From Bilabrum cf. latius (Eukaryota): a stretch of 64,000 bases of DNA. Positions 400 through 42,357 of the stretch are shown here, piece by piece (the first letter of the stretch is position 1; every line of letters begins with the position of its first letter). Both the position numbers and the translations under genes were made by a program. The stretch is from NCBI GenBank assembly GCA_965178125.1, contig OZ237747.1:1054001-1118000 (forward strand), in the 5' to 3' direction. Under the pieces are notes generated by a model. That model saw nothing but the letters and a program-made list of their open reading frames with translations. It made no database searches and was not told where the DNA came from.

Positions 400-1881
400 T
401 TACCTCCTTCCACCCGTTGCAGTACCGTCGGCGGCATTGATTTCGGAATGCAGAATGCCAGCTAGCAGCGCAGCCACCTCCCTCGGACGCTCTGCATGCA
501 GCCAGTGCCCCGCTGCAATGGAATGCAGCCTGCAGCTACCCGTGCTAAGAGAATAGGATTCGACAGAAGCTTTGTTCAGCGTAGACACAGCTGATCCACC
601 GCCGTCACCGCCACTATCAGACACCCCGTCCGGAGCACTTGCTCTGGAGCGAGCATGGTCAAGAGACAGCCCTGAAGGGTCCAACGCCCGAGGCAGAGGC
701 GCAGGCGATGCAGGTGAGAGCACGCCTGCGGAACCAGACGGACCATCGCGGCGCCGCGCATCCTGCGCCTCGAGCACGCCCTGCAGCCTTGCGACCACTT
801 TGGGCACTCCCCAGCGAGCCCCCCGAGTGCCGAGCACGAAATCGATCGCGGCGCCGCGCGGGGGGTTCCGCAGCAGGTCCCACGAGTCGATATCAGCCAG
901 GTCATGGTAAGCGTTCAATGCCTCGACTGGATCAAACGTCCACACAAACCCATCACTGCCACCATGGTCGTCAGCATGGTCGCGCCCGCTCAGTGGCACC
1001 CCGCGCTCGTCACACGCTGCTTCCGTCACGTTCGTCGTCATCCACTGAGAGAGCGATTTGCTGAAACCCAGCTGCGAAAAATACTCACCCGCCGCGCGGC
1101 GGCTGGGAAACGGAAGCGGCGCAGCACGCACCGCCTCGAGCACGACCTGCACACCATCCTGGTCCCGCCGAGCCTTATGCGGTGTGACGAGTGGATTTCC
1201 TGTTTGTGTTCCCTATGATTGCGAAGGGTGCGTTCTCCACCTTCCCGGGTACGTGTCCAGCACCACGAGGCGTCGCCGGCGGTGCTTCGCGCTGGTGTTG
1301 CTGCTGGGGCTGCTACTGCTGGTGGCAGTGCTCGGCCCGCCCTGCGAATGCAAAATTACTTTGCCGCCCATGGAGTGCCCGATCACCACGTTGATCGGAG
1401 TGGGGGATAGTGTCGGCAATGATGCTTCGTCCAGTCGAACCGCTGACGGCGGAACAGCCGAGTGTGGTCTGTGAAGAGCCGTCCCCGCTGGCACGTCCAG
1501 AGCATGCAAACCAGTCGTGCCCTCGATCTCAATCTCAGACAACAGGCTATTTAATTTCGCTGCGCACCTTTTTACAGATACTGGACGCACGTCGCTGTGC
1601 AGTGATCCAGCGTGAGATGGTAAATCGACGAGGACCGCTGCCCATCGGTTGGCCTCCCGCTCGCCCACTCTGTCCTTTAAGGCACGAAGTACTAGCCTTG
1701 CCACGGACCGCCAATTCTTGCCTGCACCCATCAGTCCATGCACGACAGCGAAAGCTTTGGTTGGGCTTCTTGCTCCCGGGAGAGCTACAAGCTAATGGGC
1801 CAGGGATGACGCATGCCGCCGCGACACAACGACTTCTTGAGCTTTCAAGCACTTTTTCACAAATCTGCGACTAGATCTCAT
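400..1881 (-). CDS. Alpha/beta hydrolase, ABHD11/YbfF-like, 493 aa with 2 in-frame TAG read as Gln; basic N-terminus could be a mitochondrial presequence
   Basis: Motifs VHGLMGAGKNW, GHSMGGK (nucleophile elbow), LVVLDTYP and AGHWLHAERP. ORFs 1213-1743 and 400-1152 are in one frame, separated only by TAG at 1215-1213. A second TAG lies upstream in LAH*LV. ATG at 1881, TAA stop at 402-400. Confidence 0.85.
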
Positions 1882-2019
1882 GCAGCACACCTGATCCAAC
1901 CAGCTAAACTTTGGCTGTCCGGATTTGGGTGGAACGAACGTTCGAAAGTGGCCGCCGGAAGAGGTTCGTTCCTCGGTGCGGAGTTTATCCGCGGCATCCG
2001 TGTGTACTCAAAGAAGCGC

Positions 2020-5000
2020 ATGTCGAGCCATCGGCAAGAGTCCTTTGCCGATCGATTCGAGATTTTACGTAAAGCCGCACGGTCTGGCCCCGGCCGCCGC
2101 CTGAAGGAGGTGCTGAACAAGATACCCTCATCGTTCATTCGTGTTGCATTTGATCATCCCCCAGCGTCCTATTTGGTAGAAGTTGGCCAGAATGGTGACC
2201 TGTCTGTGCAATCATCAACATCATAGAGCTTGTTCTTGGAACCTTCCGAAACAGCTGCGTCTTTTCGGAGCTTCTCGGTCCGGTACAAAGATGTGGCTAC
2301 GTGGCGGCGCATTTAGGAGCGCACGATGAATCCAATGCAAGCATACTTCCAGGGATTGATACAGTTTGAAGGAGATAGATCACTCGGGATGTATATGCGT
2401 TCGATGGTGGAAAGTGCTAGGTCCACGGGTAAAGCCGACCTGACCGAACGTGCCATCGCCGCACGCCCAGTCGTGGCCGGAGCCAAACGACTAGACGCAC
2501 CCCAGGCCCCGGCATCGTATGCACTGCAAATTGCACCAAGAGAACTGCGAGAGATTCGGCAGCTCCTTGCGGAGCGCGAAGAAGAAGAGACGAAACGCCT
2601 CAGCGCAGAGGCCCGAGCAGAGGAGACGGCCGCCGACCTCAGGAAGCTGCAGGACGTGCAGGCCGAAATATTCGCCGCTGATCTGAACGCAAGGGCGCAG
2701 TAGAGCCACTGGATCTCTCTGGCATTGCTCGCGTGGTTGGCGTGGACGTACACGGGCTGGAGCGCTGCCCTGCTGGGAGGCCCCGTGCGCTGGGCCTCAG
2801 TGACGTGGCAGCTCGGAGCTGCTGTGGTGGCGGGCACAGATCAAAGGGGCTCTGCAGTAGACTGTTCAACCACTAAAATCGCCAACTAGTCCGACCACGG
2901 AGCCTCGGCAGAGGCAGGAACGATTTGGACAACAGGGTCCGCGGACTTGATCCTGTTGTTCCTTGGCTGGTGCGCCGCGTGCGCCCCGCTGCTGCCGCTT
3001 TTCGCCTACTGTGCGGGCTGGTGGGTCTTCGTGAAGGTTCCTTAGAGCAGCTTCAGCCGGAGGTTACGGGTGGCCTTCGCGGCAGGCAGCCTCCTCCTTG
3101 GTTTGCGGTGGGCGAGGCGACACGCCGAGAGTATCACGGACGAGGAGGAGAAAGAGGCGTTCTGGGACGTGAGGCTGAGGGGGTACGCCAGGTTTGCCTA
3201 CGAGCACATCGCCAGGCTGAAGGGGTTCTGGTGCAAGGTGGGGCAATACCTTTCCAGCAGGGCCGATGTGCTGCCCAGGCCATTCGTGCGGGAGCTGGGC
3301 AAGGTGCAGGACTCGATGCCGAGCACTGCATTCAAGGAAATCAAGCGGATCGTGGAGGAGCAGTCGGGTGCCAGTTTGGAGCAGCTCTTCTCTTCCTTTG
3401 AAGAGAAGCCCCTCGCCTCCGCCTCCATCGCACAGGTGCACAAGGCCACCCTCAAGCCAGAAGCCGCCAGGGAGCTCCCGCAGTCTGGTGTACTGCTCAA
3501 GCGGCAGGCAGCGAGAGCGGCACACGCCACGGGCAGCGCCAGCAAAGGAGCCGCGGGCGCCGCGTCCACCTCTCGGCAGCGCGGCCTCGACGTCGTGGTC
3601 AAGGTGCAGCACCCGAACATCGACCGCATCATGCGCGACGATCTATTTAACCTCGATCTCCTCGTGAGAGTAGTGGCCTACTTCGAGCCCGAGTTCGACT
3701 TCCGGCCGGTACTGGACGAGTGGTCTGCAGAGGCGGAGAAGGAGCTGGATTTCTCAAGGGAAGGCAGGATCACTAGGAGGGTGGGGCGGGCGCTGCGGGC
3801 GGCCGGCACCTTCGTGAGGACTCCCGAGGTGCTGGATGTGCTGGCGGCCGTGCGAGGGCTCGGCCTGGGGCACAAACAAGAGGGGAAGCAGACAGCGGGT
3901 GGGAATAAACAGCCTGAAGGGTCGCCGACATCTTCCACCACCGGTGGATTGCTCCCGGGGCAGTGCCCTCCCGTGGAGGGAGGCGCCAGGGCTGGCGTGC
4001 CCTCGCTGCGAGCTGCCGTGCCTCCATCCGGAACCGTACCGGACGTGTACGACGGCGGTGACGCGGATGGCAAGGCGCTCGACGGCGCGAGCGGGGGTGC
4101 CCCCAGCCGGATCTTGATGCTAGAATTTGTGGAAGGGTTCAAGATCACGGACAGGGAGAAGCTGAGGGAGACGGGGGCCGATCCCACGCAGCTGCTGCTC
4201 GGAGTTTGCGAGGCGTTCGGCGTGCAGATGCACCTTCTCGGCCTTTTCAACGGCGACCCGCACCCCGGCAACATTCTGGTAGAGAAGGTAGCAGAGGGCG
4301 AGGAGAACTGGGCCAGAGAAAGCGGCCCCGACGGGGGGCCCGCAGGAGGCAGCGGGCCGAGCTTCGACCAGGACCCTGCCGCGGGGTCTCTGCGCCCTGT
4401 CCTGCTAGACTTTGGACTCGCCAAGCTGCTGCCAGAGAGCTCCAGGATCGCCTTCTGCGAGATGGTGCAGGCGTCCTTCCTGAACGACTTTGCCACGCTC
4501 TACGACGCCTTCGAGAGGATGGGCGTGCAGCTCACGAGGGAGCAGCCCATGGACGACATGGTCGCTGTGAGGTACCTACTGCGCGACGTCGAGCCGCCTG
4601 CCAAAGCAAGGGCCAGGATGCTGAGGCAGAGGAAATGGATGCAGGCGAAGCGGAAGGAGAGGCTGGCGGCCAAGCAGCGCAGGCCGGTCGAGGCGTTCCC
4701 CGGCGACTTGCTCTTCTACCTTCGCACGTCGGAGCTGCTGCACGGGCTGGGGTCGGCACTCGGCGCCGAGCTGCCCTACCTTACGGTCGTGGCTGGGTAC
4801 GGGCGGCTTGCCACGCGCGCGTTCTACGCCGGCACGGACCCGCTCTTCGATGGGAATCGAGGGGATGAGGCTGCCACTGCTTTGGATGCAGACGCGCTGG
4901 ATGGCGGGCTCGTTGGAGGATCTGCTGCGGCTGGTAGGGGCAGCATCTGCGACTCGAACGAAGTCCTGCCGATGCTTGCGGCACCGAGTCGGCATTCTGG

Positions 5001-7509
5001 CTTTGTGGACGATGCCGCCAGCGCTTCGGGTTCGTCGCAGGCTGACGCCGGGCCGGAGTCGACGGTGGTTTAGCTTGCTCGGTCTATCCAGGAAGAGGGC
5101 GGTGCCTGGGCCCCGTCTGCCAGGGCACACCTCGCGGTCGAGGGCCTCCTTGCTGGGGAACAAGCGGAGGTGCGGGCGGGCAGGGCGGCGCAAGATGCCA
5201 AGTCCAAGGCGAAGCAGGGTCCTACGCGAGCGGAAGGCAGGGGATCTCCGCTCCTGCACAAGACACGGACTAGCGCAGGCGGGATGCAGGCAGCGGCTTC
5301 CTCAGCGCAAGCCAGGCAGCCGCACAGATCTCGCCTGACTCACTCTGCGACCGCCGCGGCTGGGTCGATGAGACCGTCTCAGTCTCCCTCCAGCGTGGGC
5401 AGCGCCCCCATCGTGAGGCTGTTCCCCAACAGAAGCGAAGAAGAAGAGGAAGAAAAGGCGGGAGCAGCGGGGTCTCGGTACGGCTACGGCGCGCTTGCCG
5501 CGGCCATGCCGATCCCACCTTCCGTGCGCCGCTTGCGTCCGTTTGTGTCATCCCTGGAGGAGCAGGTGCATCGCATGATGGTGGAGATGGTGCGGGCTGG
5601 AGACGCCGTGGGCATGCAGGTGGCAGTGTACCGGCGGGGCGAGCTGGTGGTGGACGTGGCCGGCGGGGAGCTGGGCATGGACGACCCGAGGCAGGTGCAG
5701 TCCGACACTCTGTTTAACGTGTTTTCTGCCAGCAAGGGCGTGCTTGCTGCTGGCCTGCATGTGCTGCTGGAGGACGCCCATGCAATGAAGAGACAGGAGG
5801 ACGCTATGCTGAGAGGTGGTCACGCGGGCGGAGCTGAAGCTGCTTCTAGTACGCTGGATGCCACACTCACTGAGCTAGGCTACGGTGACAGGATCGGAAA
5901 CGTGTGGCCCAAATTTGCAACGAACGGTAAGGAGGATGCTACGGTGGCAGACGCGTTGACTCACTCCACGGGGCTGGCACACCACCTGCCGAAAGGCGTG
6001 ACCGCAGCGACGATGTGCGATCACAACAAGATGGAGAACTACCTTGCGCACTGCAAACCCATGCACCCTGTGGGCCAGCGGGTGGCGTATCACTACTACA
6101 ACTACGGCTGGATCGTTGGGGGTGTGTTGCGGCGGCTGTATGCAAAGTCACAGCCGGGCCGATTCTTCGACGATCGAGGGCAGCCCAGCGCAGCGGCTCC
6201 CACTGCCGGTGGCATCCTGAAGGAGGTGCTGCTTAGTCGAGTGGGCGGGCATGCTCTCAATGGTGAGCTGCACCTTGGGGTGCCCGAGGAGCTCGTGAGT
6301 GGCAGCGCGCCCCGTCTAGCTCGGCTGTGCGGCGACTTCGGTGTCACCAGCCGGGCGGTGGGCGAGTCGTCCGATGACGCAGCCGGCGGAGCGAAGGCAC
6401 CGGCGGGTGCTGGCGCCGGTGCAGACGATGCAAGCGGGTCTGGTGGCCCAGACAATAATGAGTCAGGTGGGGACATGCCCGCCGCGGGCTTGTTTGGCGG
6501 CAGCGGTGGGGGCGGCTCAGGAGGTGGAGGGCCGCAGGGTGGCATGGGCCGTCTGATGGGCCTGGTGCAGATGGCGTCCAACGTGGGGGACGATGACGAG
6601 GACAAGGAAGGGTACTCGATGGATGGTGGTGAGGACACAGATTCTACCCATGGTGCTGCGGGGTCTACCGGTGGGCAGGGTGGCAAAACAGGGGATGGCC
6701 ACAGTGGCAAGGACGGAGGCGTTCTATCGGCCATTGATGCGGCTGCTGGCAGGCCGCCCCGTCCGGCGCCGGCTGGAGACGCATCCCGGACAGAGATGCT
6801 GGGAATGTTGCGTGCAGTCAAGAGGGTCCGAGGGCGGGAATACCTGATCGACCCGCGGCTCTTCAACCGCGCCCCCCTCCGCCGTGCAGAAATCCCCGCA
6901 GCCAACATGCACTGCAGCGCCCGCGCACTGGCTCGGGTCTACGCGTGTATGCGGCCCATGGACTCGCCTGCAGCTCATGCGCCAGGCAATGGCTCGGGTC
7001 GTGACGGCCAAGCTAATGTGCATAGCAGGCCGCGAGGCTTGCTGTCAGAGGATAGATCCCAGGCGATCAGAACGGTTGCGGGGAGGCAGGAGTCCTCCCA
7101 GCTGCAGAGCTTGTTCGCTCCAGGGGAGGGGCAGGGGGCCGCAGCGAAGGGGGCTGGAAGCGGGGGCAAGTCGTTCCTATACTGGGGCCTGGGCTACCGC
7201 CTGTACCTTCCTTCTGGCGGGGGAAGAGCGGGAGGAGCAGGCGCGGCTGTGGGTGCGAGCGGTTCCAGGGCTTGGTCGGGCAGCGAGGGGTACACGCAAG
7301 GTGGGATGCGAGCTGCATCGTCTCCGCCAGTCGTATCTCCCGCGTTCGGGCACACTGGTGTGGGCGGATCCATCGGGCTGTACGACGCAAGCAGCGATAC
7401 TGCTGTGGCCATCACGGTGAACAAGCTGGACTTCTCAATGCGGCCCACAAGGCACCTGCTCGAGATGCTCGCGTTCGAGATGCGCCTGCCGCACCTGAGG
7501 CTGCACTGA
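2020..7509 (+). CDS. Fusion protein: SCP2-like sterol-carrier domain, hydrophobic/TM segment, ABC1 (UbiB/ADCK) atypical kinase and serine beta-lactamase-like domain; 1829 aa with 6 in-frame TAG
   Basis: One frame from ATG 2020 to TGA 7509 with TAG at 2224, 2314, 2701, 2887, 3043 and 5071, and no TAA/TGA. SCP2-like MNPMQAYFQGLIQFEGD. ABC1 motifs KVGQYLSSRAD, PLASASIAQVHKA, VKVQHP, ELDF, NGDPHPGN, LLDFG. Beta-lactamase motifs FSASKG (SxxK), YYN and GHTG. Confidence 0.88.
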
Positions 7510-7871
7510 TTTGGAACAGTGAAAGTGGCCAAGTTGAGGTCGATATCCAAGATCAAAGCAAGCTTTGAAATGCAACTTGGACCAAGCTGTACATGGGACG
7601 AAATACAAGCGCCGAACTCAATTTATTTAGATCTACTTAAACCTCCAAACCGTGGAACCTAAATAATGAACAACCATAACTCCAATCTTGAGCTCTTTAT
7701 TGGCTCAAATGGCGGATATTTAGGCCTATGGTTAGCATTCCGGACAAGTTCGTTTGATAACGTGCTGTTGTTATAACTCAGACTGGATCCAGATCCGATC
7801 CGGATTGCAGCGTCACCACACATTTACCATTCACTTTCCCGCTCCGAAAACGAACTCATCGCTTGTAAGGC

Positions 7872-8804: not shown

Positions 8805-9692
8805 GCGCGGGTCATCACCGGCCCTGAAATTGGACCAAACTTGACCGGGATCATGTTGAGTAGGTGGAAGAGCAGCGACTCCCTTCACTGATGATGATCG
8901 GTGTGGCGCTCAATAGCACCTGACCAGTGCCTGCACAGTTGTGCAGCCAGAGGTCAATATCGCTGGCAACACCACTAACGGGTGCCAATGATAGGCAACA
9001 TAGAGCTTGCAAGCGACCAAGAGTCGGCGGGTGTGCATACGACAATGAGTCGGTGCGTGCGCGTGCGAGCCCACACTGGCACCCCCAACCCTAAATGGTT
9101 GGGCAGTGGGCAGCCACGTGATTCGTGGCTGCCGGTGCCAAGCAACCTCAGCTGAAGCATTCGATATGCCTCTCAGCATCGACAGGTCCAGAGATGGACC
9201 GGTACTAGTAGTACTACTAGTAGTCGCGGTTGCATCACCCGGTGGAAGCGCTTTTGCGCTGTCCCGCCTGGTGTGCCCTCGGAAGCCCCGAGCTATGACT
9301 TGAGGCTTGAGGTGGTTCCCTATTGAAGGGGGCCCATGATTCCATGGGGCGGAGCCCGTGTTAGTGTGCACGGTTTCTATCCCTCGTCAATGCTTTCCTC
9401 ACCCCAATACTGGTGTGAGCAGGCAGCCGACCGGGATACTCGATCAGAGATGATACTTCTAGTCGCATGCATTGCATCAACGACATGCATACTCCCACAC
9501 ATAGTGATCCAACGCAGAAACCGGCGTGGTAGTAGGTTATGACTTGCTATATAGGCCTAGTGCGTTGCGTTTAGCCATCCCGAGTCCGGACCGGTCCTCG
9601 CATGTTCCGCAACATTAGCGCGGCGCCTACTCGCTGCCGTTTGCAAAAGGAAATTTAAATAGCCAGCAAACAGACATTCTAAGCCCTTTCAA

Positions 9693-12600
9693 ATGTCAGA
9701 AGTACCTAAGCGATATAAACCACTCGCAAGCATACCGTCGAATCGGGTGCGCATGCCTGGAAGTAAGATAGGCGAGACCCAGGACACGATGCTGTCATTC
9801 ACCGAGCAAGCCAAGAGAGCCCTGAAGGCGGCTGGCATTGGACCAGCTCGGAGGCGATATCATTCTGTTTCAAATTAGCCATAGTAGGGCACATCAAAAG
9901 CGAGAAGTACGGTCGCATTGCCAGCGGGGAGAGGCAATCGCTCTGAATCAGCGAGAAGCAAGCACAGGCACCCCCGACGGAAGGTCTCCAGGAATCATCG
10001 TGCCCACGCTGTTGTAGTGCTGAGATCAGGCGTGCCTATAGAGGCGCATAGCGCGCGGAACTCTTCGAGACGTGCAAAGCGATCCTCGCAAGCCGCGCAA
10101 CTGCTGGCATCGGAGCAAATCGGAGCCCCTGCTGACTACCTTGGAGCCAATCATCGAAGCCCGCTTGAAGCAGCCAGACAGCTTGCAAGAGAAGCCGTTG
10201 CCCGCAGGCCTGCCCCTCTTTTTGAGCCCGCCAAGCGCGCAAGCGAGCAAGAACCTGCCAGAGAGCAGCCAAGCCTGCGAGCCTCCCTATCGCGACTGGC
10301 AGCCAAGCAGGTCACAAGGAAGCAGCCATCAGGAAGCGTTCAACCCGATCAAGCCGTACTTCCCTCAGTTGGACAGTCTCCAATTGAGACTTTCGGTGTT
10401 CCTCGCGCCACTGCTGGCCCGCCAGCCACGAGCAGCCCAAGCACCGGCCACCTCTGGAAGGAGGGCAGAGAAGCAGACCGCGTCGATGGCATTGGTACGC
10501 ACGGGCCCTCGGGCGCCGGGGCAATAAGTGAAGATGATGATGATGCCGAACTCAGCGTGAGCGTGTCGTCATCCGAGGCTGGCAGCGAACTGTCGCCAGG
10601 GAGACCCGGCGCACAGCCTAACTCAGGCTCAACCCCCCCGCGTAGTGAAGGCTAGCATGAGGCCACCGGGCTGGGCCTGCCAACGAATCCGGCCACGGGT
10701 TCGGTGCACTAGCTCTAGTAGCATGGTGCAAGCAAGACAAGGGCAGAGCAAGGAATGGATCAGGGCTTGGATGCTGGACATCAGCCTGGGCTTGCTAATC
10801 CGGCCGAATCGTTGTTTGAACGTGGTGGTGCGAATAGAAGCAGCGAAATGATGGATCCATTGAAGGCAGAAGGAGGCAGCGCTGCTGGCGGAAAGGACCC
10901 TTTGAAGCCGCCAGAGCTGCCCAATCGCGCACTGGCTGCCAGCCAAGCATCCAGCACCGAACCGTCGCTCAGGGCAAGCGGCACAGCAGATGCAGCTGGG
11001 AACGAAGCTATATGGCATGGCCAGCGTGCTCCAGCTGTCCATCCACTGGCAATCTCTGACAAGACATAGGCGGACACTGTCAGCGACTCGCCCGCACCCG
11101 CATCATGCCAAGTGCTGCCAGCTGCGCCCCCAGCCGAGCCTGGCACCGGCCGCGCAACCACTGCACGAGACAAGGTCGATGAGGGTCACGGAGAGGAGGA
11201 AGGCGAAGGCAGGGACGTGATGGCCGAGGCGATCCGATCTGTGAGCTAGCAAGCCGCTGCAACTGAAGGACCTGCCTGTGATAGTCATCGGATGGCGGGT
11301 AAATCCGGCGGTGTTGGTGGCAAGCAAGGTGGCGGCGATGACGGCAGGGGGCATGTTGCAGCCCGATTGCTCAACTCCAGGAGCCAGCGGATGGCTGCCA
11401 CAATGAGAGACGATCTGAGGCGATTCGCAAAGCTGCTTGCGGCAGGAAGCGGTGCGAGGCGGAGCTAGAGCTAGGCCAACCGAAGTGGAAGCAGGGAGGC
11501 TGGTGGCGCTAGCAGTGACGGCAGCTCATCACAAGCTGCAGCAGCAGCTAAGGGCAGGCCTCTCGTGTGCACTGAAGGACGAGGGAGAGACGGTCTGGAG
11601 GGTGCTCCTGTCGGTGGCACTGAGTCAGGGTCGGAGGATGACGAGGAAACGATGGACAGCAGCTGGTGCAGAGCTAGCATCTTGGAACAGGCCAGGAAAG
11701 ATGAAGCACAAGAGGAATCGACAGGTCGTGATGGATCACCCCCATAGTCAGGCAAGCCAGCCAACCCGACAGCATCCTCTGCGCCGGGATCGCTTTCATC
11801 GACAAGGTTGAAGCAGCTGGTGCGAGACGCCATGGCGAGCAGCAGCGGCAACACAGGAGGCGGGCAGCCAGTTGGGGCAGCACCAGGCTACGATGCATAG
11901 CAGGCTCGACTGGTACGAGTGGGCTCGTTGAAGCGGATGGTGATGGGCGCGACAGCCGCGCCCCACTCTAGAGCCAGCTCCTCGTAGACCTCCAAGCCGA
12001 AGAGTCAGGGAGCATGGACCGCTAGCGGCGAGATGCCAGAAGCGGCCGCTAGTGCGTGGCTCGAACGGGGCCGGCGGGCCATGAGCGAACACCCTGCCAG
12101 GACCAGACTACAGGGTGCTCGTCACACCAGCAGTAGCGACAGGTCCGTTCCAGTACGCGCACCCGCTCTCGATAGCATCTCTACAGGTGCAAGTTCACGT
12201 GTCGATGTAGCGCCTGCATCCGGTGACCTTGCAGCGTCAGACCCGCAGCCAGCGGACCTTAGCCTGGATCGGAGCGACGCGATGACGGTGCGATCCACCC
12301 GCTCCACTTCAACCTCTTGTTCCCTGGTGAGTCCCGGTGTCGGCTCTCTGAAGAGGCTTCCAAAGCTAGTGCGGCAGCTGGGCCTTAGCCCGGGCCGGCG
12401 AAAGCGGTCGGGTGATGGGCCGGCCAGGAGGCAGGTGCCATCGCCTCCCTCATGCACGACTGCGAGCGATTCTAGTCGATTGTAGGCCCCCCTAGACAGC
12501 ACAAGGCCATCGAGGTCGAGCACAGGCAGCCTCTCTGCAGCACGCTCTGGTGTGGCGGCAGCAGCAGCGGTTGGTGATGCTGCAACAGATGCGTCGATTC

Positions 12601-14210
12601 GGGCACCCAAGACACACAACAGCTCACTGGCAGCATCAGCTCATGACCTGCCCGCGTCGCCCCAGCAACGGCGCAGTGCAGTGCATCCGTCCAGCATGCT
12701 TGCCGTCGGTGGTAGCTAGGGCGACACGAGCAGTCGAAGCCCAATGAGACAGACCGGCCAGAGCCCGCTGTCTGCCTATCTGAACAGGGTGTTTGGAGAT
12801 GGGCCCGTGCCAAAGGGCAGAGAAAGCTCGCCTCGCGGTGTTGACGATGCAGGCAACTTAGGGCAAGAATAGTCTGGCACGTCGAGCACCTCCACCAGCG
12901 GTGACTGGGGCCGGCAGGAGGCACGAGGTGCAGTCAACGACAGTGCACCGAGGAATCCCGATGCCAGGTCTGCTGCACATGCTCCTGCTGGTGCTGATGC
13001 TCCTGCTGCTGGTGTCAACCTTCAGGGCAGCACTGCCGTTGAGCGAGCCATGGCCTCCATGCAGCAAGAGCTGCAGCTTCGGAGGCAAAGGCTGGCCATG
13101 AGCAGGACTGCCAGGACTGCGGGGAATCAACACTCTCCGGCCCGATCGTCGCTATGCACCGAAAGCAAGCACGAATTATCGCGCGATGGCGTTGATGTCG
13201 ATGCTGGCAATATGGATAGCCAAGGCAGCGAAGGCGACGCGGCATCAACCACAGGCGGGGGGTAGGTCGTGCACGAGACGAGCATTTTCAGGAAGGCGGC
13301 AGCGGAGGCCGTGCGGTAGCTCAGGGCAGGTACCAGGCCCAGGGAACAATCCTCCGTGGTGCAGGACGAGTGGGGCGTGCGGAGCTCCTGGTTGGAGGAG
13401 TCTCGCGCGTCTGCTGCCTCCGGCGGTGCTCGCTCGCGAGGAGCAAGTGCTCCGTCCCCGTCTGCTCCCTCCTCCATTGGACTACCCAGCGCCCCCTGCA
13501 GCAGGCAGACATCCCCACAGAGGACTGGGGGAAGCAAGGAGCCGAAATGCAGCTCTGGCATCCAGCAGGCTCCCGGGCCGAGTGCTCCAGCTCAGAATAA
13601 TCAGGATGGCCCACCAGGACAGAAGCGGCCATGTGCATGGTAGGACGCCTCCGATTCGTCCAGTGAGGATGGAAACAATCCAACTGCAGAAGGGAATAAA
13701 ATCAGGAGCTCATCTCGCCCTCGTGCCGAGGATGGATGGAGACACACGTATGGTGTTCCGCCGTCCCGTCCTCTCTTGCGCGAGAGCACACGAGAGGGCG
13801 AGCACAACTTGGAGCTAGGCGATGCCGTGGCGAAATTGCTGGCATGGGAGCGCGAACAAGAAGCGCCGCGTCGAGCTGCCACGTCGGCGAAAGGGTATCG
13901 CAGCGCCATGCCTGGGGGTCCTGGTGCGGCGAGCATCGGAATGCTCGGCGCGGAGCAGTTGCCCGTGCTCCGCGTTCGCAGCCGGCAGACTAGCCCTGCT
14001 GGCTCTGTTACCGGGACCAGCGAGGCAAGTATCTTTAAGCGTGGTTCTGCAGGAGCGCAGAAGCTTGCATCGCATTGCGATCAATCGGCGATCTCCGTGG
14101 AAAGGGGGGACGAGGTTGACGACTTGCAGGCGATCAGCTCGCTGTTGAATGACAGAGCCGTGTGCGATGCGGTCGGAGCTGATCGGATGTGGCTGGATGG
14201 TAGCAGTTGA
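9693..14210 (+). CDS. Large low-complexity (S/A/G/R/P-rich), probably disordered protein of unknown function; 1505 aa, 20 in-frame TAG
   Basis: Track ORFs starting at 9693, 9918, 10755, 11565, 12033, 13050, 13356 and 13776 are all in one frame. Reading the gaps by eye shows only TAG (20 counted) and no TAA/TGA until TGA 14208-14210. Confidence 0.75.
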
Positions 14211-17600: not shown

Positions 17601-17969
17601 GCAGCCGCTGCTGCAGACACCGCCGCCGCTGCTTCGGAGCAGGCTCAGGCAGCCGTGGTGGAGGCCCACGAGCAGTTTGACAAGGAAACCAAGGAGCGGC
17701 TGGCCAAGGCCCAGGCCGAGAAGGAGGCGCTCATCGCCAGCATGAGCGGCAAGAAGGCCGCTGCCGTGCAGCCCGGGGATGCAACCTACTCGGTGGATGA
17801 GCTTAAGGAGGCCAAGGCCGGCGGCGACCTGGACATCGAGTTCTCGCGGAAGGAGGAGTACCTCTCAGATGCGGATTTCGCCGAGGTGTTCGGGATGTCG
17901 AGGGAGGAGTTCGCCGACAAAAAGCCGTGGAAGCAGGCACAGCTCAAGCGAAGCCTCGGTCTGTTCTGA
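14692..17969 (+). CDS. Villin/gelsolin-family actin-binding protein with C-terminal headpiece; exons 14692-14761 and 15232-17969; ~935 aa, 4 in-frame TAG
   Basis: Phase-1 intron 14762 (gtgagc) to 15231 (ttgcag). IWRVNKFEL...[10 protein letters not shown]...[16 protein letters not shown]...[11 protein letters not shown], further gelsolin repeats, IRLL*GKEPPHF, and headpiece [21 protein letters not shown]...[19 protein letters not shown] at 15411, 15420, 15519 and 16668. Confidence 0.93.
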
Positions 17970-18519
17970 GGAGTCTTTTGTGTATGGAACGTGGGGATCA
18001 ATCATCGTATATCAATCACATTGTTCTAGTAGGTTCTGGCCAGTTTGGCTCCATCTGTTCTTGGCATACATAAGAATAGCCGGCGCCGTGAAAGGTCGGA
18101 TTTGGCCGACCGACCGGTATCGCCGATATCGGTACCTTCAATTTACCTTACCGATTCTCGCGTACCATTCAAGTAATCCTAAAATAATATCAAGATATTG
18201 AAAATTGTATAAGTTAACTATCGACTGCGAGTGATACTCATTGATAAACTTGCGACAATAGTATACTTGGTGGTCATGAAACCAAACGCTCGATTTTCAG
18301 GAAGGGCTACTTTGATACTGCAGAAGTTTGTCCAAGCAGGCATGCTTGCAAAATAAACAAGCTTTTTTGAATTAATCGGTGGTTATATTATATATAAGTC
18401 TTAGCGCAAAAAAGTTACCGAACGGTTTACAAGATATTGAATCGAATGTGGACCTGCCATGAATTACGTGCTTCGTGACCCGATTCTTGTGCATCCATCT
18501 ACTTGGCATTTATATCAAC

Positions 18520-21050
18520 TTAATCTACATCACAGCCAAATCCTGTTTCCAGATGATACAGAGATTCTTTACAATCCCCACAAATGAACTTGCAGCAGCG
18601 TGAACACACTTTATAGGAAGAAACCGACTAATGATGCTGCCGCTTGCTGCATCTGGAGCCCTTGCACTTGGCGCTGCACCCCCCTCGACGGCTCTTTGAT
18701 CGTCCGTTACTGAGAAAATTAATCAGTCCTGCTTGTAACTACTCCTTTCCAATCAAATGGAGCGAGCCCAGCAGCGTAGCTACCACGTGCTGCTTTCTAC
18801 ATCCAAGGTTCCCGGGGGTCGCCTCCGCACGCATCCCAGCTGAGGTTGCAGCACCGCGAGTTCCTGCACGTGCATGTCGGTAAGGACGCATCAATTCGTC
18901 ATACAACAGCTGCACAAACATACCACGAGCCTGTCGATGCCGCACCATGTGCTAAACCTGTTCCTGAACGGATTTGCTGCTAGCTCCAGCAGCTTGCCGA
19001 CGAGTGGGTCCGTGGCGTAGCAGTCGACGTGCCTCCAAGTTGACCCAGATGATGTACGTATTGACGATAACTTGCTCCATTAAACCTTCCCACACTCTTA
19101 AGTATGCCCTAGTCTCTCCCTGGAATGAATTTTTTTTAGCGAAAGTTGCGTCCGGAACTTGTCAGCTAGATCCACACCCCCCATGTACTTGTTGTAGAGG
19201 ACGGACACGAGGGGCGCGTTCACCACACTCAGGTCGCCACCATCTCTCCGTAGCGTCTTTACCAAGCAAACAAAGTACTTCGTAGGAATGTTAGAAGCCA
19301 TAAGAAATGGTGCGCGGTCACAGTATCCAAAAACTTGCATCCCATAAGCTGAATCATCTGGCGAGTCAAAGGCTACTGTCTGGCCAGGGCTCAACAGGCC
19401 CCGACTGCCAAGGTCCTCTTCGGCCAGCAGCGATCCCGCAGGAAGCTCACTCGCATCAAAAACATCACCAGCTGTTACATTACATAAAGATACTTTGCTG
19501 GACCCAAGAAGAGCGCGCTTCACAGCCTGCCCGCGTTCGCCTGGGGTTCGTCTGTTCAGCTAGCCAATCGCGTGGTACAGCTCACCGCTCACTTTGCCTT
19601 GGCGAAGCGTGCCAACAACCCGAAGGCCTTTGCTGGTGGCCCAATCACACAGTGGAGCCGATGTAAAGTAGTTATCCACCGCTAGGAGGCCCCCGTTCAA
19701 GTTTTTGCCCATTGCCTTCGACGCAACAGCTGCTGTTTGCAGGTCCATCCGGGTCAGCTACCCGGCAGCGGTGCCGCTGCCGGTTGCTACCTTATACGAG
19801 TACTCAGCCTTCCCTCTGTACTATCGTGTATCATCGGCAACAGATGTTGCTAGATCCAAATGGTACACATACCCGTCTTTTCGTGCAGCTGCCCATAGCT
19901 TAAAGCCATGCGATGTGGGCTTGTTCGGCATGATGACACATGCCCGATTTCGGCCGTACGCCATCACCATCATCTCATCGACGGCGATGCTCTTTGGGCT
20001 CAAAGTAGCCGCACGAAAGTACTCTGAAACTGCATCTAGCATGCCTGGTGGATATTCTATGAGTACCCGCTCGCGAGGACTGCCCACACTCCCTAGCCTC
20101 ATTGTGGCGCGCTCCTCCGCCAGCAGGGGTGCCGGAGCCTCCTGCAACCTCCCGGCGAAAGACAAGTTTCGATGGAACCGATTCCAGTCTTGCACTACGA
20201 TATCGTCTTTCATGCGCACCAGGAACTACTTTGATTGCAGCAATTCTAAAGGTATCCGGGGTCGAATGAGAGACCGAGTCAATACCACGGCCAGGAACAT
20301 CATGGCAACTGGCATGTCCATTGGTTGGTCGCTGCCGGCTGGCCGGCTGCCTGGCCAGCTACCTCTGCCGCTGCAGTGCCTCGCCACGAAAATGCAATAT
20401 CGAGAGGCACCAGCGAGCACAGAATGCGTATTGGAGATATTGGTTGTTCATGATGAGCCGTCATCCAGCCTTTGACATACTCAGTAGCAGCCACATGAGT
20501 AGCCGCTGTGCGAGCGATCGGGAATCGATTCGGGATCCCATCACCGCCAATCACAACCCGGTCATTCAAGAAGTACCAATATTCAGGCTCATCAACCAAC
20601 GATGCAATTTTGTCCATAGGAAACATACTTTCATATTGCTCTATTCTGCGCCGCTTTGCTTGGTGAGCCTACTGCCTCCTACGATGCTGCACCGGAGGCC
20701 GGCTCAAAGTTGCAGACCGACTGGATACCGGCTCGTCCTCGTCTGAATCGCCGACATAGTCCATATCATCATCGCTGGCCTATGCTTCGCCCAACAAATC
20801 ACGTAAATCATCATCTTTTGTCGATTTATTTGCATTGTCCTCTTGCCGTTTACGCTTGGACCCAGCGCGTCGGCTCGAACTGGCCGCATGGGACGGGCTG
20901 CTTCTTGACTACTTGCTAGCAACCGAAACGCTAGATATAGGTTTACAAGACTCCAATGAGAATTTTGGGATTGACTGAGATGCTTCTGCGAAGGCTAAGC
21001 ACAAATAAGCGATGAAGGCTGATATCAGTGGCCTTGCAGCAACACCGTGC
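18520..21050 (-). mobile_element. piggyBac-superfamily (PGBD-like) DDD transposase gene, probably degenerate (two frameshifts); element ends not identified
   Basis: Acidic N-terminus, IAVDEMMV...IMPNKPTSHGFKLW, LAVDNYFTS...VVGTLR, YNKYMGGVDLAD, VWEGLMEQVIVNTYII, and a Cys-rich C-terminal domain (CSAKC...CSRCCKFICGDC...H) ending at TAA 18522-18520. Frameshifts near 20390 and at an A8 run near 19130-19137. About ten in-frame TAGs. The 5' end is uncertain, with a possible upstream exon near 21300-21480. Confidence 0.8.
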
Positions 21051-23381
21051 ATGGCCAATTCTGCACAGGACGCAAGCCCGATTGTGGCCCTATTATACCT
21101 CTGTATAAATATTTAAGCTCGTCCACATCACCATGGAATGATTATTCAACCAACACCTCGTCAAGCATACCACGGATGCATGGATACTGTCAATGAGTGC
21201 CACATTCGTGGCTTCCGGTGCCTCTGCGGCAGATTGTACGGTACCCCGAAAATAGCCGGCTACAGCCCATGCAATTCCATCAACCATAACAATACCGTAC
21301 TCACTTTGATCGATGAGCCTGAGTTTGGCGGATTTCTGCTCGTGACGCCGAGACGAGGCACTCCCACCAGGGGCACTTGCACCCCGAGACCCAACTTCGG
21401 ACGCGCCGCTGGAGCCACTTTATCGCGTCCCACTCGTTCTTCTCGCAAACTTAGACGGAATCCTCCACACGATATTGCATTCAATACCCTTGTATCTCAA
21501 CAGTAGTGCCAGTGTGTCAAAAGTCTATTGCGCTAAGGTATAAATGCCCTGCAAATTTTGGAACCGTTTGAACCGACGTGTGTTGGAATGGCAGCCAAAT
21601 TTCGCTGGATTGCTAATGAATGAGCCTGGCAACCTGATAACATGTTGTCAAGTATGTTTTTAACTACTAAGTACCAACAAAAACCAAAGAAAAGCTTTTT
21701 TGGCGGCACACGGTGCGTGCATCTGGCACCCCTCGCCAGCGAGTAAAATCTTGGGCTGGGGGTGGTCGCCAAAAATGGTGGTCGCAAGCACGACTCGTTT
21801 TCAGTCTAATGCTGCGAATTGCATGGCTCCGTTGGGACTGCATTACATTTAAATGTTACATTAGATATTTTTGCAATGTAAATTTACCCAAGAAATTGGT
21901 CCAGTTCTCAGCAATGGGAGCCTAAAGGCACGATGGTCGCGATTTTGGGACTCGGAATGCCAATAATGGCGGACCTTTCACGGCGCCGGATAGGAGGATC
22001 CGGGATCGTTTGGTGCGCACGGCAGCTTCGCCACTTCTGCGACCACTTGCGACCTAATTCGGAGCCAATGCAGCGGAGTCCCCACTTTCGAAGATATCAC
22101 GCTACAGTACTTAGCCACCACGCTCAACTATCAGCCCACGTGCGGTTGTCTGCTGCAGCCCGCGACTCTACTGATCTTGTGCACCGGCGAGCAGGGCTTG
22201 GCCTGGACTCTGGAGCAAGTGCCAAGGGGGTAGTTGTGGGATCCAAGCTATCCAGGTGCACTTCGATAGTTTCCCAAGAGATTGGTATTGTGTCATTCGT
22301 CTAGGCGTGGGCAGGCTTCCTCGGCATAATTCTAGGCCTATATTTGTGCGTGCGGGGCTTGCGCCTCCAAGGCTGAGGTCGCGCGCTGGACAGCGCTCGG
22401 GCGAGTCGAAAAGTCATGTGGCGTGAGCTTGTTCTCCAAGGTGTATGTTCGGTATTAATTAGCCTGTATTCTGGACGTGAATGTCCAAATCAGCGCGGAT
22501 CCGGAATCCGGACCCATAGACTCGGAGTCTGATAGATCTAGGCCTTTTGAGTGTCTTGACACAAAAAAGGCTGAAATGAAATCAAGTGTAGACAGTACTA
22601 CCCGGATGCATACAACAGAAGCAAGTAAGTTGATTGTTTGCTAATTTTTGAATGGCATACTGCGTACGAGACGATCAGGCACCATCGATTTTATCGTCCT
22701 GCTGTGACCACAGGACCTTCCGAACGGAAACCTAGACTATTTGCAGCGCATAGTGTAGAATCTTATTGCAAAAGATTCTCTTTTCAATACTGCAGAGAAG
22801 TGGCGGGGCCTCGTCAGCCATCGAACAACTGCGTCACAACGCGGGAATCCTCTTGTTCGAGAACCACGTGACCAATTCGGCAGTTCTCGAGTTCGTGACT
22901 CCGTGCCATCCAGGCGTAGGCCTATTGAGTAGGCTGCACATGAACCTAGCCCACCTCCTTGTAAGACAATTTTTGTTGTTTTGACCGATGCAGACGCCAA
23001 GAATTTGTCCATGTGTGCCAGAGTAGCACATGGTGTGCCAATTTAGCCACTGGCCATAGCAGGCTGCAAATCAACGCCTTCACAGTACAGTTCCAGGGCG
23101 ATCGATCTTGTATGGCTCACTTCATCGGCATTTGTTCTTTTTTAGGATATTAGTTAGAGGAACTGGCTCGCAGATACCTCCCGGGATGTGAGTGAACAAA
23201 GGTCAATCGGGCGAGCACCGGCTACCAGGTGTGAGAGAGTATCCGAAGCTAGGCATCTTAAGAGAGAAGCTAAACTGATTCAGCTTTAATATGGAAGTCG
23301 CTAACTAGTTGGTGTGCGTTCGCAGTATGTAGCAAAGGAGAAGCGGAAATAAAGCGTGCGACCTTCGCTGGTAGCGGTGGC

Positions 23382-26314: not shown

Positions 26315-27098
26315 CAAGATTCAATCATTGCGAGGGCGGTACCAAGTGATGCTCACTTTGGCTTTGAATCATATATTTGTACAGATGACAGAGGAAAAAA
26401 ACAGAAATGAAAAAGTATCGTCGCTCGATTTTGCTAACAGAACAAGAACTCGGGGGCGCAGCCTCTCAGCGGCCAGGTAATCTGTCCCGCCTATTGCGGT
26501 GGCTGCTGACCAGTCCGCAGAGTCGACAGGGGTACCGCTCCGTAGCCAAACTTACTGTACTGCGTGACCAATATGCAAATGACTGCTGCTGCCCCTGCAC
26601 AACCTCAAACTCATAGAGACTCGCCTGTAGCACACAACTACTACGTGCTCCACCCGTGCACATGGATCTGCTCTAGTCCCGCACTGCTTGCGTCTTTGAT
26701 TCTAGAACACATGCACAAGCCAGAGCTCATGCGGAGTAACGACACGTCTGAGTAGCGACACTACATAGAGCTCGGTGCCACTATCAAGGCGGTGACGCAC
26801 TTGAGTCTCGCTGCGTTCTGTGGCAGTGCAAACGGCAACCTCGGAGGTGGCCGAGGGATCACGGTCATGTATCTTCCACCGTTGCGATCGCAACAGGACA
26901 GCAAATTAGGTCATTTCTCGTGATTGCTCGAACTCTTTTAATTTGTTCTTAATTTAGATACAATACGGATTTTACGGGCAGTTTGCTTTTTTCAGATGCC
27001 ACATCCGGTCCGGATCTGGCGCAGTCACCACCGCCCATAGGTGAACTCAGGGTCATTCGAAGGACCTATTGAGCACCGCTCGAAGAAGTATACCAACG

Positions 27099-30000
27099 TT
27101 AGTCACACATTGGTGCTAGAGGACTGGCCTAACGCGAAGTAGACACCTTGGCGGAGTTCTGAGAAGCTCCAGCTGACGGGGGCTGGGCGCTTCCGCCAGC
27201 AAGGACAACGGAGCCTTGCTCAGCCTGTGCGGCATGATCTGTCGTCTCCGCGTGGACCTGACAATGTTTCTAGGACCCACATACCTAGCTGCCAATGTGG
27301 CATTCAGAGCCGCGTAGGCGACTCATGCTGCTTAGAACAAGTGATTTAGAAGCCGATGGCCTGCGGGGGCGACGAGGCCTGCCCGCTGCTGCCTCCTTGG
27401 CTGCAGATCGCGCCTCCCAATTGTTGTCCGGATTAAGACCAAACACAAACTCCTCAGATTTGTTACGCGTGAGCCGTCGTCGTGCGCCAAGAAGCATATT
27501 CCGCCTATTTCCCCGCCATGGGCACAGCAAGCTCCACGACCACCATCCCTCGCAACTCTCCGGCAGCACACATGTGCTCCGAATCCAAGCCCTCCAGGTC
27601 TGGGGGCAGCAGCAGTAGCAACGACATGTGAGCCTGGCCAGCCACTCAGCTGCGTATATCAGGGCGTTGCACGCGCCCTTGTAGGGCTTCTCAAGAAGGT
27701 AGATGAAAGAGAAGAGAATCCGAACTGAAAGGCTGAAGGTGCCGGCGTAGAAGAGGGACCACATGGTTGCTTCCCCCGTCGTGTCGTAGACAACAACAAT
27801 CAGCCCAAGAAGCAGATTGAAAAACAGCACGAACATCACAATGCAGTCACGAAAGGACTTTAGTTCGCTTTTCAGGTGCTGCTCCTTTGCTTCAGCTTCT
27901 TTCCTCATGGCTGCTTTCGAAACGCACTGACCGTCAGCAGCATCCTCCAACCTGTCCTTGTCCACGCCTGTATTCGATTCGGTTTGCGCCGATTTCAGTG
28001 CTCGCGAATGGTATTTCCGAATACCATCGCTAGTACGCGATTGTCGTGACCAGACTGGAGGCTGGCCTGGTCCTCCAGCGCCGTCACCACGTCGCTGAGG
28101 CGGGGTAAGTGCTGGTACCGGCTGGCCTTGCCCGGAGTGCAGTGGGGGTCCCGTTGAAGTCCGAGGAGGTCGAATGTGACGCGCGCCCTTGAGGATGTTG
28201 GTATCGGATTTGAAGTGAGGCGTAAGCGTGATCTTGTCCGCTGCAGCCGGCTCCCCCTATTGACTGTCGTTGTCACAATCCTAGATCTGGTCGCCAGCAA
28301 GCTTTGAGGCAGCCGCGGCACCAGACCCGGATCCCTTCTATTCGCTTGCATTGCATGCCCCCTACGCTTTAGCATCCGTCAGGCCCGTCCATTCCTCTGC
28401 ATGATCGCCAGGCAATTGTTCGTAGGGAACAATGCGTCGAGTCCCATCGCCGTGTTGTTGATGTTGGTGAACCTGGTGTCCTGCGGAACGGCGAGCCGGC
28501 TGCGATGCACGCTAGGGCTGCTCAGCGGTCGGGTCATCCTGCTTGGTCGGTGAAGACCACGTCACTTCGTGGAGCCTAAGGAGGGCAATCTGGAAGATCA
28601 GCATGACCGTAGTTGGCATGAAAGCCACAAAGGCAGGGGAGGTCCATACGAATGTGATGAAGTGCCCGTGAAGCAGAGCTGCGAGTGCCATACCAGAGAG
28701 AGTACCTACGCCAACCCACCTAGCGATAACGATGTCAAATACGAATGGAGCGGCCATCGTGGAGTTTCTGGCCAAAGTGTCGTTGAGCAGCATCACTGAC
28801 TCGTTGATGGCGGGAGCCGTAGCGTTGACCAGGTCCATGGATACATTTACTACGTCCGCAGTGGCGTTCTGGTGAAGTGTCCCGATGTCTAACATGGTAC
28901 TGTTCGCAGTCACCGTGGAGTTTGGGTCAGCCATGAGAGCGCGCTGGGCAGCTCCTGCTCCAAGTTCAGACTCGTAAGTTGGTGCAATGTCGTCGTCAAG
29001 AACCCCAGACAAGCTTGCAAGGGAGTATACTGATGCCCCAACAGCAGCAATGCTGAGGACACCCAGGTACAGCATCATTGTGTTGTAAACTGAGCTGTAC
29101 CGTTGGTAATCTGCATCAGGCGCCATGATGAGGATGTACAGCACGATCAAGACAAGGCCAAAGATTCCGGTGTAGGCTATAAGGTCACCTGCCTGTCCAA
29201 GGAACTGCGCCAGCTGAAACAGCATCACGCTGTAGGTGACGACAAGCAGCGTTGGAGAAACGACCTGCGGCACAAAGTGCATCGTTGTCCAGCACACATG
29301 CATGCCAATCGCAGTTTTGCGGCCACAGCTGTGGCCGGACTTGTGCATCAAGTCCCTGCGAGATGTAGGCAATTAGGCAAGTGGGCAAGTTAACACTGGT
29401 TGACAAATGTCAAAGCAGTATTTTGTTGCGTAAAAAGAAACGTATGGCTCACCGGGAGTTTTTGGCAATGTATAGACTCAGCGTAGCCAGGGTTCCATTG
29501 AGCCACCGCCTCCTCTACTTGATCAGGGCCATCAGCGTTTCGGGTGGATCCGTCGTGGCCACAGCATCGCTGACGTATTTGACCTGCGAGTTCAAGATAG
29601 GTCGAATGCTTTGTATTCATATAGAAGAAGCAATTATTTTGTGAGTTGTTCACTTTCCCTGCATACGCATCGCCTTAGTCAGGTGCTAGGATGATGCAAC
29701 ACCCCCGTGTAGTACGTCTAGCACTCACCGTCCAGCACTCGTCGATCTTTGCAACAAGGTACATCACCAGCAGGCGGTCCTCCGCAAGCATAGCATTCAA
29801 CCAGAACGGAGCTAGCTCTGTCTTGGGCGTGTCCACCTTCTCGAAGTATTGCTCCAGTGGCTTGCCCTTGAGAGCCTCCCACCTGAAAGCAGAGAAACAG
29901 CCTGGCAAGACCGGAATGAACCTGCAACCATAAGGTGAAAGGAGTCCACCGCTGCCTTGAGGTTCTACTGATAGACAAAAATAAGAGGATGATGTCGTAA

Positions 30001-42137: not shown

Positions 42138-42357
42138 GGCGCGGACATGATTTCGTCTTGTAGCACGCGGCAAAAACGTTTCATAGCTCCTGGTAGGCCC
42201 AGTACAGCCTCGCGATACGTGAGACGGACCCGTGAACATTTTCATACGCTACTTCGAGTTGAGCTAAATCTGATTCCCAGGACCTTTCCGATGGACACCG
42301 CAAAACAAAAATCTTAAATCACTGGAAATTGCGCTCAGATAACAAACGTGCATATAA

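Follow-up and report, generated by a model that had tools for sequence, protein, structure and literature searches.

Apparent reassignment of UAG to glutamine, with UAA and UGA kept as stops, in the nuclear genome of a probable stramenopile

RESULTS

Reading frames in the source window

The DNA considered here is a window of 64,000 nucleotides (contig C13, OZ237747.1, positions 1054001-1118000) from a 48.6-Mb, 111-contig eukaryotic assembly, and its subject is the codon UAG, which this nuclear genome almost certainly reads as glutamine while UAA and UGA still end genes. When TAA and TGA are taken as stops, the window contains eight frames of at least 900 codons, the longest of 1,899 codons. 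No frame of that length is left when all three stops, or TAG and TGA, are used, and none was present in 20 Markov-simulated windows, in which the longest frame had 502 codons. In ten long frames of the window, with 11,516 codons in all, there are 120 TAG, and the other two frames of the same DNA hold 91 TAA. Since TAA itself sets the limits of these frames, their lack of in-frame TAA is partly a circular result.

A first-pass annotation of this window had pointed to three genes ending in TAA as evidence that UAA terminates. All three triplets are present on the minus strand (402-400, 18522-18520, and 27101-27099), but as proof of termination they are weak. The TAA of the alpha/beta-hydrolase frame (400..2007, minus strand; 535 codons, two in-frame TAG; PF12697, E 1e-5) lies 20 codons beyond the last conserved motif without a terminal motif to anchor it, and the next in-frame TGA follows at 342-340. 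The DDE transposase (18520..21112, minus strand), presumably of the piggyBac type, has a Cys-rich tail followed by TAA but is split over three frames, with TAG in every piece and a PF13843 match (E 7.7e-11) in the middle one. The "CHS2" frame (27099..29372, minus strand) is a membrane-spanning, chitin-synthase-like 3' frame with eight TAG, a low-complexity tail, and no Pfam match; its label stems from a by-eye resemblance to a chitin synthase paralogue (33936..37667, plus strand). The latter consists of frames 33936-35078 (four TAG; PF01644, E 6.6e-12, and PF03142, E 3e-4) and 35655-37667 (seven TAG), and three chitin-synthase-like genes are clustered on both strands between 23274 and 37667. 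Given the weakness of the three ends and the circularity of the window count, the claim was tested elsewhere in the genome.

The remaining long frames are all on the plus strand. An ABC1 kinase fused to a beta-lactamase-fold domain (2020..7509; PF03109 and PF00144) carries six in-frame TAG and ends in TGA, as does a low-complexity frame without a Pfam match (9543..14210; 1,555 codons, 23 TAG). The last exon of a villin/gelsolin gene (15222..17969; four in-frame TAG) matches PF00626 six times and PF02209 over its full length (1-36/36) at residues 880-915, and its TGA comes directly after this complete headpiece domain. Four long frames of 1,105, 1,343, 1,444, and 1,002 codons (38820..55335), with 12, 21, 16, and 16 TAG and the ends TAA, TGA, TGA, and TAA, respectively, and a frame of 1,031 codons (60282..63377; 12 TAG, TGA end) gave no Pfam matches. 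Between 38820 and 59379 the long frames form a tandem of related sequences, with N-terminal parts that look kinase-like by eye, low-complexity tails, and no Pfam match.

Contigs of four public runs (X1, X2, X3, and X5) were compared with window positions 1-19600. We took X1 to X3 to be RNA by guess; for X2 and X3, which come from two studies, this is backed by one spliced joint (GT..AG, 14759-15230) that is present in both and absent from X5. No differing letter was found in the X2 and X3 contigs over 15230-17669 (four TAG) or in the X5 contigs over 1-6875, 8427-11115, and 11086-14347, and an X3 contig (2007-7120) and an X1 contig (2007-7572), spanning six TAG, showed neither a differing letter nor a gap. 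One X1 contig ends at position 356, which lies 44 bases beyond the TAA of the hydrolase and short of the following TGA; this comes from a single run and is not used as evidence. The depth of X5 over the transposase is 2.5 to 4 times that over the flanking genes, so further copies exist, and at 14330-14650 it rises to approximately 6,000 against approximately 100, marking a high-copy repeat between two genes.

Meaning of in-frame TAG

At 19 dynein heavy-chain loci, whole frames were translated with X in place of every stop, the products were aligned to the best 120 homologues, and codons were counted where at least 30 homologues aligned. Most of these genes are single uninterrupted frames of 4,300 to 5,700 codons; short genes, the eRF1 and Rab genes for example, do have introns. 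The 58,127 aligned codons include 216 TAG, no TAA, and no TGA. This upholds the earlier observation of many in-frame TAG without TAA, and not a single TAA stands at a conserved glutamine site in this set. If UAA and UAG both encoded glutamine, the ratios of A- to G-ending codons would predict 32 to 37 TAA in the aligned codons and 48 to 88 in the whole frames.

At columns that are at least 70% conserved, glutamine is the consensus for 39 of 89 TAG codons, compared with 50/118 for CAA and 424/899 for CAG; at 90% conservation the figures are 32/54, 40/67, and 355/573. These modest fractions arise because paralogues are compared with one subfamily, and the control codons behave in the same way. 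The log-score at TAG is -7.7 for glutamine and -239 for the runner-up, glutamate, and tyrosine is the consensus at only one of the 89 conserved TAG columns. At both levels of conservation, none of the 61 sense codons departs from the standard code. Across the 19 dyneins, the share of TAG among glutamine codons falls with GC content at third codon positions (rho, -0.86) and rises with the share of CAA (rho, 0.85), so that TAG usage behaves as that of a synonymous glutamine codon. Pyrrolysine was considered and rejected as the meaning of UAG: the TAG profile equals that of CAA and CAG, and the "Pyl" label given by ARAGORN reflects the anticodon only.

Other families agree. Pfam matches read through stops contained TAG, TAA, and TGA in the numbers 20/0/0 for dynein AAA_6 (28 matches), 6/0/0 for the proteasome (19 matches), and 48/1/2 for Ras (65 matches); the single TAA in the Ras matches is intronic, and one of the two TGA occupies the first codon position of a match. 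In 8 of 30 Ras loci, TAG occupies the glutamine of DxxGQ, an established Ras motif. Judged from these alignments, the nuclear code is almost certainly NCBI table 15, with UAG as glutamine and UAA and UGA as stops.

What ends genes

Gene ends were counted only where a terminal motif fixes them, which leaves out the proteasome C termini. Thirteen of the 19 dyneins reach the conserved C terminus and end in TAA (3) or TGA (10); of the other six, four run off the fetched DNA, one ends early, and one has a divergent end. For two of the TAA-ending dyneins, 111 and 109 homologues place the median predicted stop exactly on the TAA. In the Ras family, 20 of the 30 loci end in a prenylation motif, followed by TAA in 4 and TGA in 16, and the other 10 either lack the motif or are exon fragments. 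The eRF1 gene stops at a TAA in register with the end of the Cafeteria protein. Together with the villin gene, this amounts to 35 anchored ends, of which 8 are TAA, 27 are TGA, and none is TAG. Thus, UAA does terminate, as had been proposed, but UGA is the main stop and UAA the minor one. In the last 100 codons of the 13 dyneins, TAG makes up 3 of 40 glutamine codons, against 197 of 2,679 elsewhere; in this small sample, TAG is not depleted near gene ends.

The CUA tRNA

The tRNA with a CUA anticodon that had been predicted from the window is encoded at C23:907607-907679 (minus strand). It is the best nuclear match to RF00005 (69.8 bits) in a search that returned 48 matches and scored 63 of 780 candidates, so that the tRNA inventory is partial. 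The cloverleaf is the minimum-energy fold, with all four stems paired; a T run lies downstream, and the gene sits among TAG-containing genes. Three pattern searches of the genome (7, 86, and 2 matches), of which the one with 86 matches was judged by eye and whose patterns miss atypical genes, yielded neither a second CUA tRNA nor a true UUA tRNA.

Each arm of the gene was set against the same arm in 35 other distinct nuclear tRNA genes, a set that excludes 3 whose structure did not parse. With tRNA-Tyr(GUA) it shares 12 of 14 acceptor-stem and 8 of 10 anticodon-stem bases (20/24; next best, 12), and both stem differences are paired swaps; the corresponding values for the two tRNA-Gln types are 6+6 and 2+4. 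It also has C1-G72 and a 5-base variable loop in common with tRNA-Tyr, whereas both tRNA-Gln genes have G1-C72 and 4 bases. None of 556 cross-isotype tRNA pairs reaches 20/24. The 3' half of tRNA-Tyr has a 40-base copy, a trace of past duplication, at C1:271855-271894, approximately 160 bases upstream of the tRNA-Tyr gene.

Several points weigh against a tyrosine origin. The subset of acceptor and anticodon stems was picked after looking; over the four stems together tRNA-Tyr leads with 29 of 42 versus 23, yet 7 of the 556 cross-isotype pairs equal this, and over the whole gene identity is nearly tied, at 50 for tRNA-Tyr and 49 for tRNA-Gln(UUG). The D stem (8/8), the T loop (7/7), and G73 are those of tRNA-Gln(UUG); on the other hand, the D stem is unspecific, matching Arg-CCU 8/8 as well. 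A search among 80 metagenome loci produced no eukaryotic Tyr or Gln tRNAs for comparison.

Eukaryotic tRNA-Tyr is recognized through A73, C1-G72, G34, and U35 (PMC9976931). The CUA tRNA has lost A73 and G34 and keeps U35 and C1-G72; retention of the latter pair is a further point against a glutamine identity. The bacterial tRNA-Gln set comprises G73, U1-A72, G2-C71, G3-C70, G10, U35, G36, A37, and U38 (PMC9976931, which gives no eukaryotic set). Five of these nine are present (G73, G2-C71, G10, U35, and A37), while U1-A72, G3-C70, G36, and U38 are missing. From its sequence, this tRNA is nevertheless in all likelihood the glutamine decoder of UAG, and it seems fairly likely to be a tyrosine-derived amber suppressor re-identified as glutamine.

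The partial tRNA set shows some further features. Nuclear tRNA-Ile genes with GAU (C32:91173-91245 and C4:952092-952164) and a tRNA-Val gene with GAC (C9:632620-632800) were found, while Ala, Pro, Thr, and Arg tRNAs have A34 forms and no Ile-AAU or Val-AAC was seen in this set; G34 in the Ile and Val boxes is unusual for eukaryotes. A family of near-identical Met-like tRNAs (C5:282086, C7:1154419, C3:1096994, C3:1133102, C9:698618, and C25:323122), three of them with a CAU loop ending in UA, has its acceptor stem in common with tRNA-Pro(UGG) and is possibly a tRNA-derived repeat.

eRF1 and glutaminyl-tRNA synthetase

PF03463 identified one eRF1 locus (C35) and a second gene (C20) whose translation reads as Pelota. 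Two TAG lie in frame within the four exons of the eRF1 gene, so eRF1 itself could not be made unless UAG is read. In human numbering, and compared with 86 full-length homologues out of the best 120, the TAG at position 44 faces glutamine in 82 of the 86, and the TAG at position 69 faces leucine in 82 and glutamine in 4. The GTS and NIKS motifs, T32, E55, S70, Y125, C127, and F131 are unchanged. Departures from a strong consensus are G29A, N30D, I35V, S60V, F117P, L126M, N129S, and K130H, five of them at near-invariant positions (G29 in 84/86, I35 in 85/86, S60 in 83/86, F117 in 84/86, and N129 in 84/86).

Positions 55 and 125 and, in part, 129 are reported to govern UAG decoding (PMC3632111); L69A raised read-through slightly more at UAG (PMC4381064); and a screen for UAG decoding in yeast enriched N126S, equivalent to N129S (PMC12440015). 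Other data weigh against these residues as the cause. Ser129 and Gln69 occur in 2 and 4 of the 86 homologues, respectively; N129P cut UAG decoding by only approximately 20%, N129A and N129D reduced all stops alike, and changes at position 60, S60V among them, were neutral (PMC3632111), as was N30A (PMC4381064). No single eRF1 residue accounts for the code. We infer a loss of UAG recognition from the load instead: one dynein gene holds 60 TAG, and by simple arithmetic a read-through of >98.8% per codon is needed for half of its chains to be full length. On this basis eRF1 is quite probably blind to UAG. A release factor that ignores UAG, as first proposed, is thus strongly indicated by the coding load, but its GTS and NIKS motifs are intact.

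In glutaminyl-tRNA synthetase (GlnRS), compared with 118 homologues (the two closest of 120 matches being left out), the position aligned to Arg402 of E. coli, which we take to function in reading G36, is glycine. Since glycine is also found in 117 of the 118 homologues, there is no special adaptation at this site. A567V (0/118) and R399K (1/118) are lineage specific. As far as these alignments go, GlnRS carries no telling change.

Lineage, mitochondrion, and a relative

The best named eRF1 match is Cafeteria roenbergensis (69%). In a 45-row eRF1 tree, this genome and a relative are sister to a clade containing Cafeteria (96/76), and in a 27-row dynein tree (FastTree; 26 of the 120 matches used) it falls in a clade with a support of 99 whose named members are all stramenopiles. 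Two points weigh against the narrower placement: it rests on a long eRF1 branch (0.47), and Bicosoecida sp. CB-2014 falls elsewhere. The trees thus make the organism very probably a stramenopile and, with less confidence, probably a bicosoecid.

The mitochondrial contig (C111:1-38401; 38.4 kb, 24% GC) has TGA in frame, read as tryptophan, and a UCA tRNA. A mitochondrial UGA code has been reported for Cafileria and Cafeteria (PMC6723347 and PMC6972860), and this likeness concerns a trait that is not unique to them. All 23 long mitochondrial frames use TAA as their stop, and TAG closes none. Only 10 tRNA genes were called, which implies heavy tRNA import; it may be speculated that import of the CUA tRNA selects against mitochondrial TAG stops, but AT richness explains their absence equally well. 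Two 18S types, 77 to 83% alike, occur in the assembly: a 1,700-base type in a tandem array (C12:948771-1029808) and one 1,802-base copy (C95:6099-7900) on an 18-kb contig that probably represents a second eukaryote.

A metagenomic relative (L127) is 92% identical in the last eRF1 exon. Its 1.3-kb contig has a single TAG, located at a glutamine codon site of the present genome, and its eRF1 ends in TGA where that of the present genome ends in TAA. It follows that the relative has the same code and that one orthologous stop can be either TAA or TGA. Two further metagenome contigs (L183 and L187), with one internal stop each in their matches to this exon, would represent other variant-code eukaryotes, probably ciliates.

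DISCUSSION

We consider it highly likely that UAG is completely and context-independently read as glutamine in this nuclear genome, with UAA and UGA as stops, by the following tRNA and eRF1 routes. The CUA tRNA would decode UAG only, because C34 cannot pair with A, leaving UAA to eRF1, and would be charged by GlnRS. It probably arose from tRNA-Tyr(GUA) by G34C, loss of the tyrosine discriminator (A73 to G73), and gain of a glutamine-type D stem. eRF1 would have lost most of its UAG recognition; among single residues N129S, in the YxCxxxF motif, is the leading candidate, probably in concert with other changes, and is held with far less confidence than the loss itself.

Three alternatives concern the code. 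Reading both UAA and UAG as glutamine (NCBI table 6), with TAA scarce only because the genome is GC rich, would invoke the commonest nuclear variant (PMC11687900), and A-ending codons are indeed rare here (CAA/CAG, 0.18); yet none of the predicted TAA is found in the dyneins, TAA directly follows eight anchored C termini, and the pattern searches found no UUA tRNA. Its exclusion in the first-pass annotation therefore holds, and we give it virtually no credence. Nor do we see any real prospect that the TAGs are artefacts, whether C-to-T sequencing errors, pseudogenes, or codons edited back to CAG in RNA. TAG is one transition from CAG, and one window gene, the transposase, is broken, but the same processes would create TAA from CAA and TGA from CGA, none of which is seen in frame. 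Moreover, the genes for eRF1, the proteasome, and Rab proteins contain TAG; across the TAGs, not a letter differs in the contigs from other runs, of which two are spliced; a different organism has TAG at a glutamine site; and a matching CUA tRNA exists. A dual meaning, glutamine within genes and stop at their ends, has precedents in ciliates and trypanosomatids (PMC11687900), but the absence of TAG from all 35 anchored ends and of any depletion in the last 100 codons, albeit in a small sample, departs from the Condylostoma/Blastocrithidia type and makes it highly improbable here.

The routes are less settled than the code. eRF1 might still be omnipotent and simply be outcompeted by the CUA tRNA at UAG, as the conserved GTS, NIKS, E55, S70, Y125, C127, and F131 and the published neutrality of single changes at positions 60 and 30 would allow. 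Up to 60 TAG per gene would then have to be met from the one tRNA gene found, and the N domain differs at near-invariant G29, I35, S60, F117, and N129 on a long eRF1 branch; we regard this as unlikely. Somewhat unlikely, too, is descent of the CUA tRNA from tRNA-Gln, as predicted for another lineage (PMC5304391), with the tyrosine likeness due to chance or partial conversion. CUG to CUA is also one change, and the D stem, the T loop, G73, and the near tie in whole-gene identity fit this, but the acceptor stem (12/14 to tRNA-Tyr versus 6/14 and 2/14 to the Gln genes), the anticodon stem (8/10 versus 6 and 4), the variable loop, the C1-G72 pair, and the paired nature of the two stem differences from tRNA-Tyr do not. 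Finally, the CUA gene might be silent or charged with tyrosine, UAG being read by an undetected tRNA or a near-cognate tRNA-Gln(CUG). The partial inventory, patterns that miss atypical genes, and the retained C1-G72 leave room for this, but all four stems pair despite many paired changes, the RF00005 score is the best of the nuclear set, two of four tyrosine determinants are lost, and tyrosine is the consensus in a single one of the 89 conserved columns with TAG, so we judge it very unlikely.

The code type itself is known, so that the specificity, described as mechanistically unusual in the first-pass annotation, has parallels in other lineages, and TGA rather than TAA is the main stop here. 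Iotanema spirale uses UAG for glutamine and UAA and UGA as stops (PMC5304391), an assignment confined to it among its relatives (PMC9161772). The codon meanings and the decoupling of UAA from UAG are the same as in the present genome. Iotanema, however, is a fornicate with UAA as the dominant stop, whereas we describe a stramenopile, by its trees, with UGA dominant (27/35); its eRF1 has T32G, whereas the GTS loop is intact here; and its suppressor tRNA was predicted to derive from tRNA-Gln(CUG) but was not found (PMC5304391), whereas a CUA gene is identified here. The phyllopharyngean ciliates Hartmannula sinica and Trochilia petrani use table 15 without dual meaning, and Protocruzia tuzeti is cited for it as well (PMC11687900). 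In the first two, UAA ends 87 to 98% of genes, which the authors take as the reason why UAA is fixed, and the suppressor tRNA was not found in their genomes (PMC11687900); here UAA is a minority stop, yet kept, and the tRNA gene is in hand.

UAG alone is also reassigned, but to another amino acid, in the rhizarian exLh (Leu; PMC5304391), in TARA phyllopharyngeans (Leu; PMC11687900), and in Scotinosphaera (Ser; cited in PMC11687900). Two TARA genomes contain a CUA tRNA, and exLh likewise alters eRF1 position 69. In these leucine and serine lineages a CUA tRNA originates from the tRNA for the amino acid it inserts, whereas ours looks derived from another isotype; UAA dominates in Iotanema, exLh, and the ciliates, and UGA does so here. 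Table 6 organisms (Tetrahymena, ulvophytes, and hexamitids) share UAG as glutamine, but in the present genome UAA terminates and the pattern searches gave no UUA tRNA. Classic examples of a non-glutamine tRNA body charged with glutamine include the tRNA-Tyr (supF) mutants with G73. In E. coli, tRNAs for Trp, fMet, Asn, and Lys (A73G) have been turned into amber suppressors that insert glutamine (PMC9976931 and PMC2965240), the CUA anticodon bringing U35 and G73 favoring GlnRS; these are laboratory mutants in a bacterium. What differs in the present case is the lineage, the dominance of UGA, the unaltered GTS loop, and the fact that a tRNA has been identified and seems not to be of tRNA-Gln descent. 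Neither a nuclear code change in a stramenopile or bicosoecid nor a tyrosine-derived UAG decoder was found in the literature searched, which covered few subscription journals, and nothing relevant appeared in the available portions of PMC11412368 and PMC10120064; we lean toward regarding the stramenopile case as unreported.

Only a few lineages are known whose nuclear code treats UAG and UAA differently, most of them through transcriptomes or partial genomes, and in the accounts available a UAG-only glutamine tRNA was either predicted or sought without success. With tRNA, eRF1, and GlnRS genes all identified here, it becomes testable how an eRF1 keeps UAA and UGA yet drops UAG, and the efforts to engineer an amber-free yeast seek just such a natural UAG-blind eRF1 (PMC12440015). 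A tyrosine-derived decoder, if true, would run counter to the view that a suppressor originates from the tRNA for the amino acid it inserts, and the retention of UAA as a minority stop argues against its surviving only through dominance. In the fullest form of this proposal, the genome would present the first stramenopile nuclear code change, a tRNA-Tyr suppressor rerouted to GlnRS, an RF2-like eRF1, and a candidate host for giant viruses. It would be a natural replay of the bacterial glutamine-mischarging suppressors, possibly through a stage in which UAG meant tyrosine, and the UAA/UGA specificity of bacterial RF2 would have been gained with the GTS loop untouched and UAA only a minority stop. 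We advance this combination tentatively, rating it a little short of even.

As to viruses, no match to two CUA-tRNA patterns was found in viral contigs, a search for viral eRF1 gave only a weak 14-residue match, and no capsid of nucleocytoplasmic large DNA viruses was matched in this genome, where the control matched nowhere either. All isolated giant viruses come from hosts with the standard code (PMC13524828), and giant viruses in which TAG means glutamine would have a candidate host type in a widespread bacterivorous flagellate with the present code. More immediately, annotation under the standard code would misread the genes of this genome and its relatives.

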